Source of the DNA: an uncultured archaeon
GTDB lineage: Archaea > Asgardarchaeota > Thorarchaeia > Thorarchaeales > Thorarchaeaceae
Assembly: GCA_964610875.1 (NCBI GenBank)
Contig: CAZSWP010000048.1
Coordinates: 1 to 25,800 of the forward strand
Length of the DNA stretch: 25,800 bases
Reading direction: 5' to 3'
Made by a program: the position numbers and the translations under genes. The notes beneath the pieces were generated by a model that saw only the letters and a program-made list of their open reading frames with translations, was not told the origin of the DNA and made no database searches. Of the stretch, positions 3,827 to 19,176 are shown piece by piece (the first letter of the stretch is position 1; every line of letters begins with the position of its first letter).

Positions 3827-4223
3827 TATTCTAGTGATTCTAGACTATGATGATACAATAATCCATAGAGATGGACATACTGAAAATCTTAATCTCTTAT
3901 GCGATTTCAAGAAAAACGAAGTTGAATTCTCTCTAGCATCTAGAAATCATCACTATCATGTTGTAAGGGGGCTGCAGAAGTTGGATATTCTTGATATTTT
4001 TACTTATATAATGGCTGATTTCAGACCCAAGTCCTATCAGGTTCGTCATATATTGTCTAACTACGAAAATGAAGGGTTTGATTTCAATAAGGTATACTTT
4101 GTCGATGATTATTTACCTAATATTGAAAGGGTCAGGAAGGATGAGCCATCGGTATCAACCATACATTTTGGAATTGAAGCATCTTCTTTTGAAGATGTTT
4201 TCTCCAGAATCGGTTTGATTTAG
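3819..4223 (+). CDS. HAD-superfamily phosphatase (MDP-1-like)
   Basis: Motif I ILDYDDT, motif II SLASRN, a Lys in RPKS, motif IV YFVDD; ATG at 3819 overlaps the end of the ATP-grasp gene. Confidence 0.82.
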   Translation: MSDILVILDYDDTIIHRDGHTENLNLLCDFKKNEVEFSLASRNHHYHVVRGLQKLDILDIFTYIMADFRPKSYQVRHILSNYENEGFDFNKVYFVDDYLPNIERVRKDEPSVSTIHFGIEASSFEDVFSRIGLI

Positions 4224-5788
4224 ATTAGACCTGCTTTTTGTGCAAACTTGCGATAGCCTTTCATGAGTAGCTTTACAACATTCATTTTCAGATTGAACTT
4301 GATCCATTTCTCCTCAGTTGGTTCTTTGAAAAACAGACCAAATTGTTTCGCATAATCGTTTTCTGAAGGAATTGATACCAGCTCTTCAACAGCTTTCGGT
4401 GAAAATGTCAATTCCACATCGGGATTCTCAGCTCTATGAGGAATCACATCAATCTTGTTCTTTCCTGTTATCAGAACGTGGAATCTATCTTTGTCAATGA
4501 TGTAATCAATTACAGCTCCTTTCTTTAGTCCTTCAAATATCTTAGGATGGTCTGATAGATATTCCATGAATCGAATCTTGATTTTGCTCTCGGTAGATTT
4601 GGCTTTCTTTTTCGTTGTAATGTATGGCACCAGAAATTCTGGAATATCTAAGATTTCCATATTACTCCCTGCGTATTTTGCACCATCTACGAGTCCTCTG
4701 TGACAGAACGGACATGCTGTAACCAAAATGGATGAACCGGTTTCTTCAGCTTCTACGATCCGATCTGCTGCAACTTTGTCAGCAATCTCTCCAAAAGCAC
4801 TTTTGACTCCTCCGCCTGAACCACAACAGTGTGCATATCGTTTGTTAGTAGCCATTTCGATAAGTTCTACATTCTCTACTGCTTCAATTACACGGCGTGG
4901 TGCCTCATAGACCTCGGCATGTCTTCCGAGATGACATGGGTCATGATATGTAACCTTGATGGGCTCTGGAGCACTGAAGGATATATTTCCATTCTGAATC
5001 AAATCATCCAGATATTCTGTGATATGCAGTACTTTGAAGGGATATTTGAAGCCGTTCTCAGGAACGTCTATCTTCCATGTTCGGTAGCAACCTGCGCATG
5101 AAGTGATGATTTTCGTTGCTCCTGTTTTCTTTATTGCTTCAATGTTATGTTCCGTCAGATTTGCGAAGGATTTGGTCCTACCTGTTCTAAGGAGTACCGA
5201 GCCACAACATCTCTCATCTTGAATGATTGTATAATCTGCTCCTGCTGCGTCTAGAAGTTCTACCGTCTTTCTAGCAATCTCTTTTTCACGATATGAAGCA
5301 GTGCACCCAACATAGAAGACTGCATCTGCTTTCTCAGGCCATTGTCTCTCACCAAAGACTGCCCATCTTTTATCATGGCTTTCCTTGTACGGATTGAATT
5401 CGTTGATTATTGATTCTTCTACCACATCATGTCTTGCAACACCAAATCCATTCTCAACCAAGTCCTTCCTTAGTGCTTCAATCATGTCTGGTATTCTAAT
5501 CCCCTCCGCTGTTGCAGGGCACGTTTCTTGACAGCTCTTACACGTGTTACAAGCATAAAGCCAATCCACGATATCGTCATTGACTTCGAGGTTCCCCTCG
5601 ATTAAGTCATTCATGACCATTACTCGCCCTCTTGCAGAATATGCCTCAAATCCCAACACATTCTTTATTGCACAAGGAAAGTAAACATCCCTATTTGATG
5701 CAACTGTCTTATCGGCGAGTGAGCAATCTCCACATCTTCCACAGAGGAAGAGATCCTCTTGATATTTGACCAAGTTTGGAAATTCCAT
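4220..5788 (-). CDS. GlcF/GlpC/HdrD-type Fe-S oxidoreductase (4Fe-4S dicluster plus two CCG domains) with a C-terminal SCP2-like domain
   Basis: CGRCGDC and CNTCKSCQETCP; two CCG domains (YVGC..CCG..CAGC and HDPCHLGR..CCG..CPFC); an extra ~120 aa C-terminal domain containing NPDVELTFS. Confidence 0.9.
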   Translation of the reverse strand: MEFPNLVKYQEDLFLCGRCGDCSLADKTVASNRDVYFPCAIKNVLGFEAYSARGRVMVMNDLIEGNLEVNDDIVDWLYACNTCKSCQETCPATAEGIRIPDMIEALRKDLVENGFGVARHDVVEESIINEFNPYKESHDKRWAVFGERQWPEKADAVFYVGCTASYREKEIARKTVELLDAAGADYTIIQDERCCGSVLLRTGRTKSFANLTEHNIEAIKKTGATKIITSCAGCYRTWKIDVPENGFKYPFKVLHITEYLDDLIQNGNISFSAPEPIKVTYHDPCHLGRHAEVYEAPRRVIEAVENVELIEMATNKRYAHCCGSGGGVKSAFGEIADKVAADRIVEAEETGSSILVTACPFCHRGLVDGAKYAGSNMEILDIPEFLVPYITTKKKAKSTESKIKIRFMEYLSDHPKIFEGLKKGAVIDYIIDKDRFHVLITGKNKIDVIPHRAENPDVELTFSPKAVEELVSIPSENDYAKQFGLFFKEPTEEKWIKFNLKMNVVKLLMKGYRKFAQKAGLI

Positions 5789-7213
5789 TTAGACTCCTCC
5801 TTCAAAGACATGCGGACTCAGTATATTATCTGGGTCTAAGGCTTTCTTGATTTTCCAGTAAATATCCAGGAAATTCTTGTCTGCTCTTTCAATTGTTCTT
5901 CCCTCCCAGAGAAGCCCATTCCAGTACGGACATCCTCCTGTTTCTATTATCGAGTCAAGCATTTCATTCCATATTTTAAGTCCAATCTCCATCTTTTCAG
6001 GAGTTGGCGGGAAAATGGTAACCCATCCTGTTGCATATGCCCGTTCGGCGGCAAGACAACTGGCTATGTATTTGATTCCATGTTTCTTGGTGTCATATTT
6101 TTTGAATATGGCATAAATTCTGTCCATCATCTCGGGTATTGATGTAATGGGTCTAAGATGACATGTATTCAACCAAAAACCATTGTTGTAGAGTGGTTGT
6201 ACTAGATTGAACAACTCACTCCAATGCATTTGAGCAGCAAAATTGCCCAAATCTTTACCATCATGTTCTTTAACAATTTCAAGAATGAGCTCTCTTTTTC
6301 GTCTTGCGAGGACTTCATCTGTTTCTTGTACGATAGCTGCAAAGAACGCATTAATCTCTGGATGGCTATTTAGAAGTCCTGGGAAGAAGGTTTCAACAGC
6401 CTCTCTATCAACTAGTAGATTCAGTTCTTCTGTGAAACCTAGTTTCTGGACCTCAAGAAATGCTTTGGTTGCACTCTCCAAGTCTTTGAATCCAAAATCG
6501 CCATACGCATAATGTTCTGCCTTTGGATATATCTTCAATGTCACTTTTGTCTTAACGCCAAGTGTTCCGTGGTCACCAAGGAATAAGCCTGTCAAATCAA
6601 AGAATGAAGAATATCTCCCAAACAATTTGGCATCTGGATTCCATCCTGTCCCTGTTGTGACAATTTCGCCATTTGCTAGGACAACTTCAACAGATACGAC
6701 TCCCTCTGTTGACGGTCCATATTTTGACGCAGCATATCCAATGCTGTTAATGCTAGTGGATCCACCAACAGTCCCAACATTGCCACCGTAGGGTCCTCTA
6801 AATCCTAGCTTGTATCCCTTCTCATCAAGACGATGGATGAGTTCAGCCCATCTGAGTCCAGCCTCAACTGTTACTGTCATAACATCTTCATCAATGTTGA
6901 CGACACTGTCCATCTTTACCATGTCAAGCATCACTGCACTCTTAGTTCGAGGAAGACATGCACCACATATGCCATTGCGGCCACCTGCTGGCACCAGTGG
7001 TGTCTTGGTTTCTCGACAAAGATTCACAATCGCTTGGACTTCCTCTACACTAGTAGGTATAACAACGATGCCCGGTCTCTCTGCTGTCAGATGGGATGAG
7101 TCTTTGCTATATGATGAGATTATGATTTGATTATCATTCAGACGGTCTTCACCGACGATTTCTTCTAATCTATCATAGAGTGGGTGTGACTGGGTAGATC
7201 GCACGACGGTCAT
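5789..7213 (-). CDS. FAD-binding oxidoreductase, GlcD/D-lactate dehydrogenase/ADHAPS (VAO/PCMH) family
   Basis: VVIPTSVEEVQAIV, PAGGRNG, VTVEAG, TVGG, GDHGTLGV and KKALDPDNILSP; likely start 7213 (or 7228/7225); its stop abuts the Fe-S gene start. Confidence 0.9.
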   Translation of the reverse strand: MTVVRSTQSHPLYDRLEEIVGEDRLNDNQIIISSYSKDSSHLTAERPGIVVIPTSVEEVQAIVNLCRETKTPLVPAGGRNGICGACLPRTKSAVMLDMVKMDSVVNIDEDVMTVTVEAGLRWAELIHRLDEKGYKLGFRGPYGGNVGTVGGSTSINSIGYAASKYGPSTEGVVSVEVVLANGEIVTTGTGWNPDAKLFGRYSSFFDLTGLFLGDHGTLGVKTKVTLKIYPKAEHYAYGDFGFKDLESATKAFLEVQKLGFTEELNLLVDREAVETFFPGLLNSHPEINAFFAAIVQETDEVLARRKRELILEIVKEHDGKDLGNFAAQMHWSELFNLVQPLYNNGFWLNTCHLRPITSIPEMMDRIYAIFKKYDTKKHGIKYIASCLAAERAYATGWVTIFPPTPEKMEIGLKIWNEMLDSIIETGGCPYWNGLLWEGRTIERADKNFLDIYWKIKKALDPDNILSPHVFEGGV

Positions 7214-7427
7214 TAGAAACGCCATCATAAAAAATGGAAATGCCCTATAAGTATTCAACGATAAGGTATTCCATATTTTAAAGTTAGAATAATAGCAAAG
7301 ATGATTATCCAATTGTAGTGTGGTGCCATAGTGAGGGCAAATAAGTGTCTGTTGATCCCAGTAGTTCTCTTGATTGTTCTTATTGGATATCAAAACTCAC
7401 TTCTGGCTCAGATTAAATCTAGTATTG

Positions 7428-15070: not shown

Positions 15071-15916
15071 TTGATGAATGAATCCATTGAGAGCGAAAAA
15101 AAGATTCGATACATATCTCTAGTCCGACGAGATGGCGGGGAGCCAATTTTGGGAATACCATATCGGGCAATGAGTGTAGACCCTGATCTTGTTGCTAGTT
15201 TTGTTCTCGCAATAATAATTTTTGAAAATCGACAGTTACGAACATTCACAAAAGAAGGATATGTTGTTATCATCGAAGAAGGTGATTATGTTGTTGGCCT
15301 TCTTATTGTAGATAAGGTCGAGGATGATTCACCCTACCGAGAAAAATTGATAGAAATCATAAAGGGGTTTGAGGCTGAATATGAAACTCATCTTCAAAAT
15401 TGGAAAGGTGATATCAGACCTTTTAGAGAGTATGCACTCCAGATTCTTGGAAATTTTCCATATAGACAATTTGAGTTAGAATTAGTACCGAGCATCGTTA
15501 CTAAATCAGAAGCAAATCCAGACTATCATTCCAAAATTCCATGGAGTGTAGGTGAAACCGATGAAAAAATTCACACGATAATTGGATACATAAATGGGAA
15601 GCGTTCAATGAAGGAGATTATGGAAGCTTCCGAACTGGATGAAGATGAAGCAAAAGCTATTTTCTCAATGCTTGACCATTACAATTGGATTACATTAACG
15701 AAGAAATTGGGTCCCGATACAAAGCTAGTCAAACTAACAGATCCACCAATGTTCTTGCAGGGTGTATACGGCGAAGCACTTGTCAAGCTAGTTGAGCTAT
15801 GTGATGGAAATCTTACATTGTCTCAAATAGTAGAACAACTTCCATATACGCTAGAAGTTCTACGAACTTTAGCAAAGAATCTGATTGATGCAGGAGTGCT
15901 CGGATATGCGAAATAA
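15071..15916 (+). CDS. Longin-like domain plus two winged-helix domains (NPRL2/NPRL3-like), paralog 1
   Basis: Longin pattern YISLV..GEPIL..VDPDLVASF..GDIRPF; WH repeats YINGKRSMKEI and LCDGNLTLSQI. Confidence 0.75.
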   Translation: MMNESIESEKKIRYISLVRRDGGEPILGIPYRAMSVDPDLVASFVLAIIIFENRQLRTFTKEGYVVIIEEGDYVVGLLIVDKVEDDSPYREKLIEIIKGFEAEYETHLQNWKGDIRPFREYALQILGNFPYRQFELELVPSIVTKSEANPDYHSKIPWSVGETDEKIHTIIGYINGKRSMKEIMEASELDEDEAKAIFSMLDHYNWITLTKKLGPDTKLVKLTDPPMFLQGVYGEALVKLVELCDGNLTLSQIVEQLPYTLEVLRTLAKNLIDAGVLGYAK

Positions 15917-15981: not shown

Positions 15982-16845
15982 ATGGTGAGTCACGCACTGG
16001 AGGGGATTACTAAAATGGCAATGGATGTTTCCAAAGTCAAGTACATCTCAGTCATTCGACTCGAAGGTGGAGAGTCAATCCTCAATATTCCATATGCGGA
16101 ACTCACAGTTGACCCAGACCTTATCGCAGGATTCGTGACGGCTGTAATAATTTTTGCTCGAACCCCGATTAGAACAATTAAGAAAGCAACTTATGATATC
16201 TTAATTGAAGTTGGCAAAACCGTTCTTGTACTTATGGTGGTTGAACCGATACCTGATGAAAAACCGTATCGCGAAAAATTACAGCTTATACTGTCCCAAG
16301 TTGAGCACACTCACGGTGATAGACTGGAAAAATTTGAAGGTGATGTTAGGACTTTTAGAGAGTCTATTCTTACAATTCTAAAGGAATTTCCCTATTCGGA
16401 TGTTGATTTGAATCTGGTACCCTGCTTAAAGAAAAGTGGAGTTCAGGTTCCGTTTCGAGTTGGAAAGGTTGACAGTCTACTTGAGCAGATTGAGAATTTC
16501 ATCAATGGAAAACGTACTGTAAGTGAGATACTTGATCTCATCGGGCTTAATGAGGAAGAGGTCCTTGCACTCCTGTCAGTATTGAAGCGATATTGCTGGA
16601 TTGATTTCAAACGAAGACTAACTGAGAATGACTTTCTAAGAGTATCCAAATGTGAGAATGAAAAGACCCTATTATATTTGACACAACAATATGGAAAACC
16701 CGTCACCGACCTCATGGATGCATTTGCAAATCCTCAGAGAGTTGAGGATGTGATAGCATCTCTTCCATATGATAAAAATGCTATTTGGTTCCTCATAACA
16801 AAATTAGTTGACGCCGGATGTCTGAAAGTCATTATTCTCTCCTAG
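15982..16845 (+). CDS. Longin-like domain plus two winged-helix domains (NPRL2/NPRL3-like), paralog 2; start may be 16015
   Basis: Colinear with paralog 1 (YISVI..GGESIL..VDPDLIAGF..PYREKL..GDVRTF..FPY..FINGKRTVSEI..LVDAG); SD GGAGGGG before ATG 16015. Confidence 0.75.
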   Translation: MVSHALEGITKMAMDVSKVKYISVIRLEGGESILNIPYAELTVDPDLIAGFVTAVIIFARTPIRTIKKATYDILIEVGKTVLVLMVVEPIPDEKPYREKLQLILSQVEHTHGDRLEKFEGDVRTFRESILTILKEFPYSDVDLNLVPCLKKSGVQVPFRVGKVDSLLEQIENFINGKRTVSEILDLIGLNEEEVLALLSVLKRYCWIDFKRRLTENDFLRVSKCENEKTLLYLTQQYGKPVTDLMDAFANPQRVEDVIASLPYDKNAIWFLITKLVDAGCLKVIILS

Positions 16846-17666
16846 AGTATCGTATCATCACCTGGAATTCCGACTACATCACTTCTACATTGTTTGCAAT
16901 GTATGAATTGCCTGATATATTTTAATGACTTCCTTCTTACAAGTTGAATTTCTTGTTTCGTTGGACCATTCAGGTGTTTCATTTGTCCAGATGGTATCAA
17001 TGGTATTATGTTCTGAAGCTTGGCTCCAGCAGTAGCAATCTGTAAAGCGAGCTCGGGAATCTCATCATTATTTGTGTGGGGAATCAAGACCGTATTCACT
17101 TTTACATGTACACCCATCTCGGCAAGGTGTTCAATTCCCCGCAATTGGTTGTCTATTACCTTTTCGCCCAACTCGTAACCTGAGAGGGACCTACCATCGA
17201 CAAATCCTTTCAAATATATTTTTGATGCGGTTTCTGGTGTGATGGCATGCATTGAGACCGAAATGGTATCTAGTTTGAGCTTGTCAACTTTGCGAATCTT
17301 TTCTGAAACCGATGTTCCATTCGTGCTAAGACATAATTTTTTATCTGGCCATTTTTCCCTAATTTGAAGCAATGTGTCCAAAACACCTTTACTGAATAGG
17401 GGGTCTCCTGGTCCAGAAACCGCTATGATTTTCAGAGCAGGTCTAGAGTTGATTTCCTTTTCCAATCTTTCTAGGGCTACTGTTGGAGTCATGATGCTCC
17501 TTGCAACACCTGGAAATGATGTATGACATGCGCCTGGTGCTAGGGTCTCACAGAATGCACATTTGAGATTACATGTTCTGGCTATCGGTAGATGAATTCT
17601 CTCCCAAAGTTGAGAACGGTCCTCTGACCAACATGGGTGATGATTAAATGGAAATGATTCACTCAT
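16842..17666 (-). CDS. NifB-like radical SAM protein (stand-alone, divergent)
   Basis: HHPC, RIHLPIA, CNLKCAFC, SGPGDPL, LCLSTNG, VKVNTVLIP, NIIPLIP and HCKQCRSD. Confidence 0.9.
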   Translation of the reverse strand: MSESFPFNHHPCWSEDRSQLWERIHLPIARTCNLKCAFCETLAPGACHTSFPGVARSIMTPTVALERLEKEINSRPALKIIAVSGPGDPLFSKGVLDTLLQIREKWPDKKLCLSTNGTSVSEKIRKVDKLKLDTISVSMHAITPETASKIYLKGFVDGRSLSGYELGEKVIDNQLRGIEHLAEMGVHVKVNTVLIPHTNNDEIPELALQIATAGAKLQNIIPLIPSGQMKHLNGPTKQEIQLVRRKSLKYIRQFIHCKQCRSDVVGIPGDDTIL

Positions 17667-17678
17667 TTCGAAGAGCTC

Positions 17679-18071
17679 TCAGAAAATATTTTGGATTAAG
17701 TGAGCTGCTTCTTTTGCAGCTTTTCTAGCATCATTCAAAATCAATCCTAGCTTTGCATTTTCAGGTGCAGTGACTGTCAATAGGAACCCCTCACTGATAT
17801 ACACGGTAAGAGTGGTCCCAAGTGTACCTTGAATGATTATTGTCTTTAGTCTACCTTGTCGTAGAGTTTGAACTGTTTGGTCACCTACAGCTTGTATACT
17901 CGCAACCATTGCAGCAACAGAAACTTCTTCCACACCTGAATGAAAATAACTCACATAAGGAAGTCCTTCAACTGAGAAGATTGCTGCTCCAAGTATTGGT
18001 GACCTATTACTTAACTCCTTAAGCATGTCACGGAGGGGGCCCAATTCTTCAGTTGATGAACTTTGATTCAA
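17679..18071 (-). CDS. Roadblock/LC7 (MglB/LAMTOR-like) domain protein
   Basis: GAAIFSVEGLPY, VAAMVASI, GRLKTIIIQGTLG and AKLGLIL; SD GAGGT before TTG. Confidence 0.92.
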   Translation of the reverse strand: MNQSSSTEELGPLRDMLKELSNRSPILGAAIFSVEGLPYVSYFHSGVEEVSVAAMVASIQAVGDQTVQTLRQGRLKTIIIQGTLGTTLTVYISEGFLLTVTAPENAKLGLILNDARKAAKEAAHLIQNIF

Positions 18072-18162: not shown

Positions 18163-19176
18163 TCAATCTATTAACCGCACAGAGGTTATAGTATCAGAAT
18201 GGAGTAGTCTTGTTGGGGACTTCATAACTCTGAGAACATTGTCCGCCTCTTGATTAAGGCCATTTTCTCTTAGTAGGTCTACAAATTCAAAACCTGTGGT
18301 GATAGATAATCCCTTCAATGGTTTGCCTTTCTTGCACGACTCGAGAAGATCACGTGCATCTAGTAATCGGCAGGAGAGTTGGTTGCCAATATGTTTCTGT
18401 AAATGTCTAATTCCCTTCAGTGCAATACCTCTGTTCTCTCTTTGTTCCTCTGTGAAGTTCTTTCGTTTTGTGATATTTCTGAGTCTTTCAACACCTTGCT
18501 CGATTAATTCTTTTGCTTTTAATCTCGGACCATAAGCGTTTCTAACACTCTTTGTAGTGGTTGTTACCAACCATGATGTGCCAAATTCTTCCTGATATCG
18601 CATCCCTTTCAATATCTCGCTTTCACTAAGTAGAGTTATGGAGCGATATCCTTTGTACTCCACAGATATCGACCAGCTTTCATCTGGATGCTTTACCATA
18701 AGATCTGGTGTCAATCCGCCTCCTGTACTTGGAACAAATGTTTCCACTTTTGGAAACAGCCTCTTTGTGAGAGCTAAGAAAGCTTCATGGAACATATTAT
18801 GCCTAAGATTTCGTGCTTCCTGTGGATGTCTCAATCCTGCTTCTCTATAAAGTAGTGGCATCTCAAGTTTTTGTCCCGTTTTCTTCTTTACTTCACTTTT
18901 TGTAGTCAATCGTCCTTTGGCATGATTAGCTCTTACTAATCTGATAGCAGCTTCTAGACCAATTAATCGAAATACTTCTCTCCCTACATCTGCTCGTTTG
19001 ACCTTCTTCCCTTTTGCTTCCTCAGTAATTCTCTCTTCAGCTTCTTTTTCAGCCCAATTCACAACATCTTGAGCATCTGCACCAAGAATGGAGAGTATCG
19101 TTGCAATCTTGTTTTTGAGATTGTATTTTTTGATGTATTTCCTTAGGTCCTGTCCATACTTCATTCTGCGAGCCAC
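18163..19176 (-). CDS. PD-(D/E)XK restriction-endonuclease-fold protein
   Basis: Helix NMFHEAF, then LTPDLMV and ISVEYKG; very basic protein; SD GAGGA before GTG. Confidence 0.7.
   Translation of the reverse strand: MARRMKYGQDLRKYIKKYNLKNKIATILSILGADAQDVVNWAEKEAEERITEEAKGKKVKRADVGREVFRLIGLEAAIRLVRANHAKGRLTTKSEVKKKTGQKLEMPLLYREAGLRHPQEARNLRHNMFHEAFLALTKRLFPKVETFVPSTGGGLTPDLMVKHPDESWSISVEYKGYRSITLLSESEILKGMRYQEEFGTSWLVTTTTKSVRNAYGPRLKAKELIEQGVERLRNITKRKNFTEEQRENRGIALKGIRHLQKHIGNQLSCRLLDARDLLESCKKGKPLKGLSITTGFEFVDLLRENGLNQEADNVLRVMKSPTRLLHSDTITSVRLID

Follow-up and report, generated by a model that had tools for sequence, protein, structure and literature searches.

What would a NifB-family protein be for in an archaeon in which neither a nitrogenase-like enzyme nor the proteins that activate methyl-coenzyme M reductase (MCR) are found? 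The question is raised by a 25,800-nt stretch of DNA (hereafter the window) from an uncultured Asgard archaeon of the family Thorarchaeaceae (assembly GCA_964610875.1, contig CAZSWP010000048.1), which carries on its reverse strand the gene for P0001, a 274-aa single-domain radical S-adenosylmethionine (SAM) protein of the NifB family. Before 2025, nitrogenase and its relatives were the only known setting of the [8Fe-9S-C] cluster; the MCR activation complex then became the second. The NifB of one nitrogenase-lacking methanogen makes [8Fe-9S-C] (bioRxiv 10.1101/2023.10.20.563283), and NifB is essential in methanogens, including nitrogenase-lacking ones (PMC12176620; bioRxiv 10.1101/2023.10.20.563283; Chem Rev 2026, PMC13474568). 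Because the MCR activation complex of methanogens contains three L-cluster-like [8Fe-9S-C] clusters, bound by its proteins McrC and Mmp7 (PMC12176620), L-clusters already have clients outside nitrogen fixation. Nitrogenase independence by itself is no longer remarkable, nor does it imply a different cluster, since methanogen NifB without nitrogenase makes the same [8Fe-9S-C] for MCR activation. The unusual part here is the absence of MCR-side clients as well. As judged from its sequence, P0001 is a conserved, vertically inherited NifB-family protein with a full ligand set and a predicted NifB fold, and no known client family was found in the lineage. We propose, at a rough probability of 0.45, that P0001 joins two 4Fe units to give an L-cluster-type cofactor, which a client of a new kind would use.

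The reading frame of P0001 is intact and opens with ATG. Its eight cysteines (residues 12, 32, 36, 39, 47, 112, 257 and 260) all fall at NifB ligand or plug positions, with none to spare. A preliminary description of this DNA had listed HPC, RIH, CLSTNG, CxxCRxD and CxxxCxxC as retained, and all of them lie in P0001 where that description placed them. The gene and its motifs, with K1 and K2 standing for the two [4Fe-4S] units beside the radical SAM cluster, are as follows.

16842..17666, reverse strand: the NifB-like gene, encoding P0001.
17631..17639, reverse strand: HPC (residues 10-12); its invariant Cys12 corresponds to the N-terminal Cys by which NifB bridges K1 and K2 (role: PMC10114646).
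17592..17600, reverse strand: RIH (residues 23-25); its invariant His25 corresponds to His43 of MaNifB, a nitrogen ligand of K1 that is essential (role: PMC7145814).
17550..17573, reverse strand: CNLKCAFC (residues 32-39), the radical SAM Cx3Cx2C cluster motif.
17508..17528, reverse strand: CHTSFPG (residues 47-53), a remodelled plug loop that stands for C-x-N-E-S-R-P-G, with the Glu absent, Arg changed to Phe, and His48 after the Cys.
17400..17417, reverse strand: SGPGDP (residues 84-89), which stands for AGPG[DE]P.
17316..17333, reverse strand: CLSTNG (residues 112-117); Cys112 occupies the position of a K1 ligand, Cys128 in 6Y1X and Cys115 in 7BI7 (PMC10114646).
17247..17261, reverse strand: SVSMH (residues 136-140), which stands for TxTxN, the Asn position being His in P0001.
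16869..16898, reverse strand: CKQCRSDVVG (residues 257-266); the K2 ligands of NifB correspond to Cys257 and Cys260, and DVVG stands for DAxG.

Across 40 diverse family members, C12, H25, C32/36/39, C112, C257 and C260 are fixed, and the residues invariant in all NifB-like groups include these, i.e. C12, H25, the radical SAM cysteines, C112, C257 and C260, together with D263. In MaNifB, the counterpart of His25 is required for K1-K2 coupling and carbide formation (PMC7145814).

A Pfam scan of P0001 returned the Radical_SAM domain only. Its best NCBIfam model is nifB (TIGR01290; E 3e-59, 200.9 bits, profile positions 10-279 of 441), followed by the MoaA models, which reach 67.6 bits against a cut-off of 284. 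Of the solved structures, the P0001 sequence matched NifB only (6Y1X at E 1.6e-57; 7BI7/7JMA/7JMB at ~7e-54), values that argue for a homology to NifB far beyond chance. An AlphaFold2 model built on a 40-sequence alignment has a mean predicted local distance difference test score (pLDDT) of 91.7 and a predicted template modelling score (pTM) of 0.90, with residues 43-49, in the plug loop, as its single low-confidence part. Foldseek ranked NifB structures 7BI7/7JMB/6Y1X at the top (template modelling score, TM, 0.84-0.90). On 7BI7/7JMB, the model superposes with a TM of 0.90 and a root-mean-square deviation of 1.8-2.0 Å over 265-268 aligned columns; the next fold, pyruvate formate-lyase activase, has a TM of 0.58.

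The altered motifs TSFP, SGPG, SVSMH and DVVG, first pointed out for this gene in the preliminary description, are confirmed, and are clade-wide rather than gene-specific. Homologues of P0001, with database names in Thorarchaeota, Sifarchaeia and Promethearchaeia, are ~274-280 aa long and 44-52% identical to it. Aligned clade homologues share HPC[WYF], RIH, CN[VIL][KQ]Cx[FY]C, a C-H-T-S-K/R-P-G plug loop, SGPGEP, C[LI]STNG, T-I-S-V-S-M-S and HCKQCRSDVVGIP. When 65 clade members were compared with 111 canonical NifBs, which carry NESRPG, and with a further 67 NifB-like proteins, the clade-specific residues were A84S, T136S, T138S, N140S (His in P0001), A262S, A264V, G82A and L118T. Position 84 is Ser in 94% of the clade and Ala in 99% of canonical NifB; the Val of DVVG is present in 97% of the clade, and a His directly follows the plug Cys (His48) in 92%, giving a plug-loop consensus of CHTSKPG without the Glu. 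The Asn of TxTxN is gone throughout the clade, where the pattern is S-x-S-x-S with a final Ser in 82%. Loss of the ExRP Glu and Arg is also found in other non-canonical NifB-like proteins. In three of the four altered motifs the substitutions are conservative (Ala to Ser, Thr to Ser and Ala to Val). Two changes are substantive, namely the loss of the K1-ligating Glu and the loss of the TxTxN Asn; no structural role of this Asn was found in the literature searched. The motif divergence is the signature of a monophyletic clade and not a peculiarity of the window gene.

The nitrogenase-type proteins, McrC and Mmp7, which are the sole users of the cluster known so far, were searched for in the window genome and its relatives. 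All of these genomes are metagenome-assembled genomes (MAGs), and that of the window spans 3.75 Mb in 124 contigs (95% complete, 5.8% contamination). PF00148, which covers NifD/K/E/N, CfbD, BchN/B and the D and K proteins of nitrogen fixation-like (NFL) systems, had no match in the window genome and none in any of 81 genomes of the family, 23 of which are at least 90% complete. No NifH scored above cut-off in the window genome, the best match being a 20.5-bit MinD/Mrp-like one. The gene had been called nitrogenase-independent at the outset, with a genome search for nif genes named as the check, and that search bears the label out, returning neither PF00148 nor a true NifH. On the MCR side, McrC was found neither in the window genome nor in 76 family genomes, and Mmp7 neither in the window genome nor in 81 genomes. 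The same searches did match the control genomes, with PF00148 recovered in other Asgard families (G029, G253 and G048) and McrC in another genome (G297).

The statement that nifHDK/EN and NifX are missing fared less evenly. For the window it stood, since Pfam scans of the window open reading frames gave no nifHDK/EN or NifX domain; elsewhere in the genome, four NifX-like PF02579 domains were found. PF02579 was considered as a carrier co-varying with the NifB-like gene and was rejected, because it occurs in 255 of 301 phylum genomes irrespective of whether the NifB-like gene is there; these domains are thus uninformative. As a side observation, two of the NifX-like genes lie together in the window genome (C51:16615-19188); after them come two ATPases of the MinD/Mrp type that carry 4Fe-4S ferredoxin inserts. 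The tail of the first NifX-like protein is rich in Gly and Arg. A role of P0001 as a substitute for MoaA was also considered and ruled out, as its ligand pattern differs and neither MoaC nor a MoaA above cut-off was found in the window genome.

The window genome holds one NifB-like gene, and the clade gene occurs in 63 of 76 genomes of its Asgard family (Thorarchaeota by database names), with the frame intact in nearly all of them. Outside the family, in a sample of 301 phylum genomes, it is present in three small groups only. Four of five gene-negative family genomes examined also lack the adjacent gene for a 337-aa protein, so these absences look like assembly gaps. Wherever inspected, i.e. 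in 9/9 homologous Asgard loci that span the deepest splits of the clade, the gene is single-copy and sits in the same ~14-kb syntenic block.

Trees were inferred by FastTree from 196 family members and by IQ-TREE from 79. The clade is monophyletic in both (FastTree support 0.98; Shimodaira–Hasegawa approximate likelihood ratio test, SH-aLRT, 98). Neither FastTree nor IQ-TREE resolves the backbone, and we accordingly propose no ancestor for the clade, whether MCR-linked or NFL-linked. One sister alone has moderate support, P0185 (FastTree 0.91; SH-aLRT 93), encoded on a metagenome contig (L035, Logan SRR33696241) in the order PF00148-PF00148-NifH-NifB-like-3x radical SAM-methyltransferase. This cluster of genes is uncharacterized, nitrogenase-like and biosynthetic-looking. 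P0172, whose gene lies near PF00148 and NifH genes, joins the clade in FastTree (0.84) but not in IQ-TREE, and the Methanosuratincola-type and other Asgard homologues form a separate group.

Among characterized proteins, P0001 is most readily compared with the single-domain archaeal NifB of Methanothrix thermoacetophila (6Y1X) and Methanothermobacter thermautotrophicus (7BI7/7JMB), which are of the same length class and likewise have no NifX domain. In structural alignments the identity is 35-38%, on the same fold (TM 0.84-0.90), and the residues that ligate the radical SAM, K1 and K2 clusters are the same. M. thermoacetophila, like the window genome, has no nitrogenase (bioRxiv 10.1101/2023.10.20.563283). 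The differences lie in the plug loop, which in the P0001 type has two more residues before the Cys and one fewer after it, no Glu, and Phe or Lys for Arg, and in the changes from AGPG to SGPG, from TxTxN to SxSxS/H and from DAxG to DVVG. The hosts differ as well: Methanothrix and Methanothermobacter have MCR with McrC and Mmp7, whereas none was found in the window genome. The NifB homologues of Methanosuratincola, an MCR-bearing member of TACK, resemble P0001 in their single domain, lack of nitrogenase and non-canonical plug loop (DKCEQKPG), at 40-42% identity; unlike P0001, they retain AGPG, TxTxN and DAxG, and such hosts are methanogens with the MCR activation system according to the literature (PMC12176620; PMC13474568). 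NFL-associated homologues of the NflB/MarB type also have non-canonical plug loops, and among them P0185 shares SGPG and SIS with the clade. Their genes, however, adjoin the NflHDK clients, and no such genes were found in the Thorarchaeota clade genomes searched. MoaA (GTP 3',8-cyclase) is, like P0001, a radical SAM enzyme with an extra cluster; its ligand pattern differs.

In the reading that we prefer, P0001 would hold the radical SAM [4Fe-4S] cluster and, on the conserved Cys and His residues, the two further [4Fe-4S] units K1 and K2. Using SAM, it would fuse K1 and K2 into a large L-cluster-type iron-sulfur(-carbide) cofactor, and the recipient of the product would lie outside both the nitrogenase-like proteins and the MCR activation complex. 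In the resting state, His48, which is conserved in the clade, may serve as a ligand in place of the absent Glu. We infer the catalytic activity, the carbide in the product and the separate client alike. Since such a client would be neither nitrogenase-like nor of the MCR activation complex, the reading implies that Thorarchaeota possess a third class of user of the NifB-made 8Fe iron-sulfur(-carbide) cluster, a proposal that we put forward tentatively and would not bet on at even odds.

Several observations weigh against this reading. The nifB score of P0001 is below the curated equivalog cut-off of TIGR01290 (343.65 bits), which among the control genomes only M. acetivorans exceeded. In terms of the NifB fingerprints of Arragain et al. 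2017 (HPC, Cx3Cx2C, ExRP, AGPG, TxTxN and Cx2CRxDAxG), P0001 has HPC and Cx3Cx2C, and also the C-terminal Cx2CRxD, the K1 His and the CxSTNG Cys; it fails four of the six, i.e. ExRP (TSFP), AGPG (SGPG), TxTxN (SVSMH) and DAxG (DVVG), and its earlier designation as a motif-divergent NifB homolog is apt. The plug-loop Glu, which in 6Y1X ligates K1 and, together with the plug Cys, blocks futile SAM cleavage (PMC10114646), is absent from P0001. At the TxTxN Asn, conservation reaches 97% in all other NifB-like groups, and the loss is confined to this clade. A family genome assembled as a single contig (G242) appears to have no NifB-like gene, either after its Roadblock gene or elsewhere, although its locus contains 300 N and scaffolding gaps are possible. 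Lastly, in seven genomes the NifB-like protein has a mean identity of 48%, compared with 60-71% for its block neighbors (TopoVI-A 71%, the AmmeMemoRadiSam enzyme 69%, Roadblock 63%). It is the fastest-evolving enzyme of the block, yet its ligand residues are all fixed, and the window copy is no outlier.

Some of these points would fit a NifB scaffold that yields a different product, as the preliminary description had suggested, i.e. a variant cluster, for instance one of the L*-type, [8Fe-8S-C], or one of the fused K-type with no carbide, [8Fe-8/9S], either retained or passed on. The clade-specific changes cluster in SAM-side motifs (SGPG; SxSxS/H with the Asn lost; DVVG), the plug loop is remodelled with a conserved His48 in place of the Glu ligand, and the nearest relative, P0185, is an NFL-linked homologue sharing SGPG and SIS; whether NFL-system NifB homologues make the same cofactor is unknown according to a recent review (Chem Rev 2026, PMC13474568). 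We nevertheless regard a variant product as unlikely, though as the most serious competitor to an L-cluster-type cofactor, as the K1 and K2 ligands and the catalytic His are all kept and three of the four motif changes are conservative. Further removed is a neofunctionalized radical SAM enzyme, in which the extra clusters would serve as auxiliary redox centers or sulfur donors and the target of the 5'-deoxyadenosyl radical would be an organic molecule or a protein. Small molecules are the substrates of many radical SAM enzymes that carry auxiliary clusters, and the faster evolution of the NifB-like protein relative to neighboring enzymes and the failure to find a client would suit such a change. 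It seems improbable to us all the same: the ligand set and its spacing are exactly those of NifB, no substrate-binding domain has been added, the model superposes on NifB over 265-268 columns, and a MoaA-like role has no pathway, because the genome has neither MoaC nor a true MoaA.

Could a known client simply have been missed, be it through incomplete MAGs or because the profiles fail to detect a NifDK-, McrC- or Mmp7-like protein that has diverged too far? The window genome is itself an imperfect MAG, and a review repeats reports of nitrogenase in Thorarchaeota (PMC6646929). Three independent families gave zero matches in ~80 genomes, of which 23 reach a completeness of 90% or more; together with the matches that the same searches gave in control genomes and other Asgard families, this makes a missed client very improbable. 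A cluster-based sensor or regulator, as the preliminary description had considered, or a decaying relic is, at best, a slim prospect. Nothing specific favors either, beyond the presence, among the neighbors, of Roadblock and of longin-like proteins that match winged-helix domains weakly. P0001 has no signalling or DNA-binding domain, which with the retention of its catalytic and SAM motifs speaks against the sensor; those motifs are under selection family-wide, and the frame is rarely broken.

The literature searched yielded no NifB lineage that lacks both the Nif/NFL and the MCR machinery, and no paper that treats both NifB and Thorarchaeota; the occurrence of NifB in Asgard archaea is mentioned, with nothing further, in a Nature 2025 paper (PMC12176620). 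The PF00148 scan of the 81 family genomes does not bear out the reports of nitrogenase in Thorarchaeota. These reports may rest on NifB-, NifX- or NifH-like annotations, and the clade gene carries the label 'nitrogen fixation protein NifB' in some databases, which may be one origin of the nitrogen-fixation potential reported for Thorarchaeota. A vertically conserved NifB lineage without either known context points to a third kind of user or to a different product, and either outcome bears on the evolution of complex Fe-S cofactors before nitrogenase and on the minimal residue set that defines a carbide synthase. If there is a third user class, anaerobic archaea would rely on such clusters as low-potential redox cofactors more generally than is now thought.

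The syntenic block comprises, in order, genes for an M50 peptidase, topoisomerase VI subunits B and A (TopoVI-B, TopoVI-A), a coiled-coil protein, a ~333-337-aa protein, Roadblock/LC7 and the NifB-like protein; beyond the latter, in convergent orientation, follow two longin/roadblock-like paralogues, in some cases DUF2797, and the AmmeMemoRadiSam radical SAM enzyme. The genes of the window next to the NifB-like gene are as follows.

17679..18071, reverse strand: the Roadblock/LC7 gene (130 aa, Pfam PF03259).
18163-19176, reverse strand: a 337-aa protein with no Pfam match, upstream of Roadblock and ~61% identical across the syntenic loci compared.
15982-16845, forward strand: a longin-like paralogue of 287 aa.
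15071-15916, forward strand: a longin-like paralogue of 281 aa.

The TGA stop codon of the Roadblock gene lies 12 nt ahead of the ATG of the NifB-like gene, and TATA-like and Shine-Dalgarno-like elements are present upstream of the Roadblock gene; given this junction and these elements, the two genes are probably co-transcribed. Their adjacency is kept in 9/9 homologous Asgard loci inspected. Because the whole 14-kb block is conserved, adjacency alone shows no functional link, and functional coupling of P0001 to Roadblock, the longin-like pair, TopoVI or AmmeMemoRadiSam was rejected as a conclusion, being inseparable from plain synteny. A complex prediction of P0001 with the Roadblock protein scored 0.00, which speaks neither for nor against binding. 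In G242 (L040, G242:C1:956000-972000), the M50, coiled-coil, 337-aa and Roadblock genes stay together and the block is otherwise rearranged, with TopoVI and the longin pair not adjacent and an unrelated SPASM-type radical SAM gene nearby.

The two paralogues look longin/roadblock-like by eye at the N-terminus and have weak winged-helix matches at the C-terminus. The pair converges on the NifB-like gene, with stop codons overlapping in CTAG (16842-16845), and is kept in eight of the nine related loci inspected, the remaining one (L005) having a single copy. Farther off in the window (4220-7393, reverse strand), a flavin adenine dinucleotide (FAD)-linked oxidase of 534 aa is followed by a 522-aa protein with two CCG cysteine-rich domains, a pair that resembles lactate/glycolate dehydrogenase with an HdrD-like subunit.

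Other Asgard families contain NifB-like genes in different settings. A second orphan NifB-like gene occurs in the family of G041 and G058, in an unrelated context without Roadblock; a selenocysteine was considered for the G041 gene (in-frame TGA, SepSecS neighbor) and rejected, the TGA being a plain stop codon. In G029 (L033, G029:C18), a single PF00148 gene and a NifH-type gene are directly followed by a NifB homologue, and in G253 (L034, G253:C2) the NifB homologue lies ~1 kb from a PF00148 gene. The families of these two genomes yielded no McrC, and the loci look like NFL systems in Asgard archaea.

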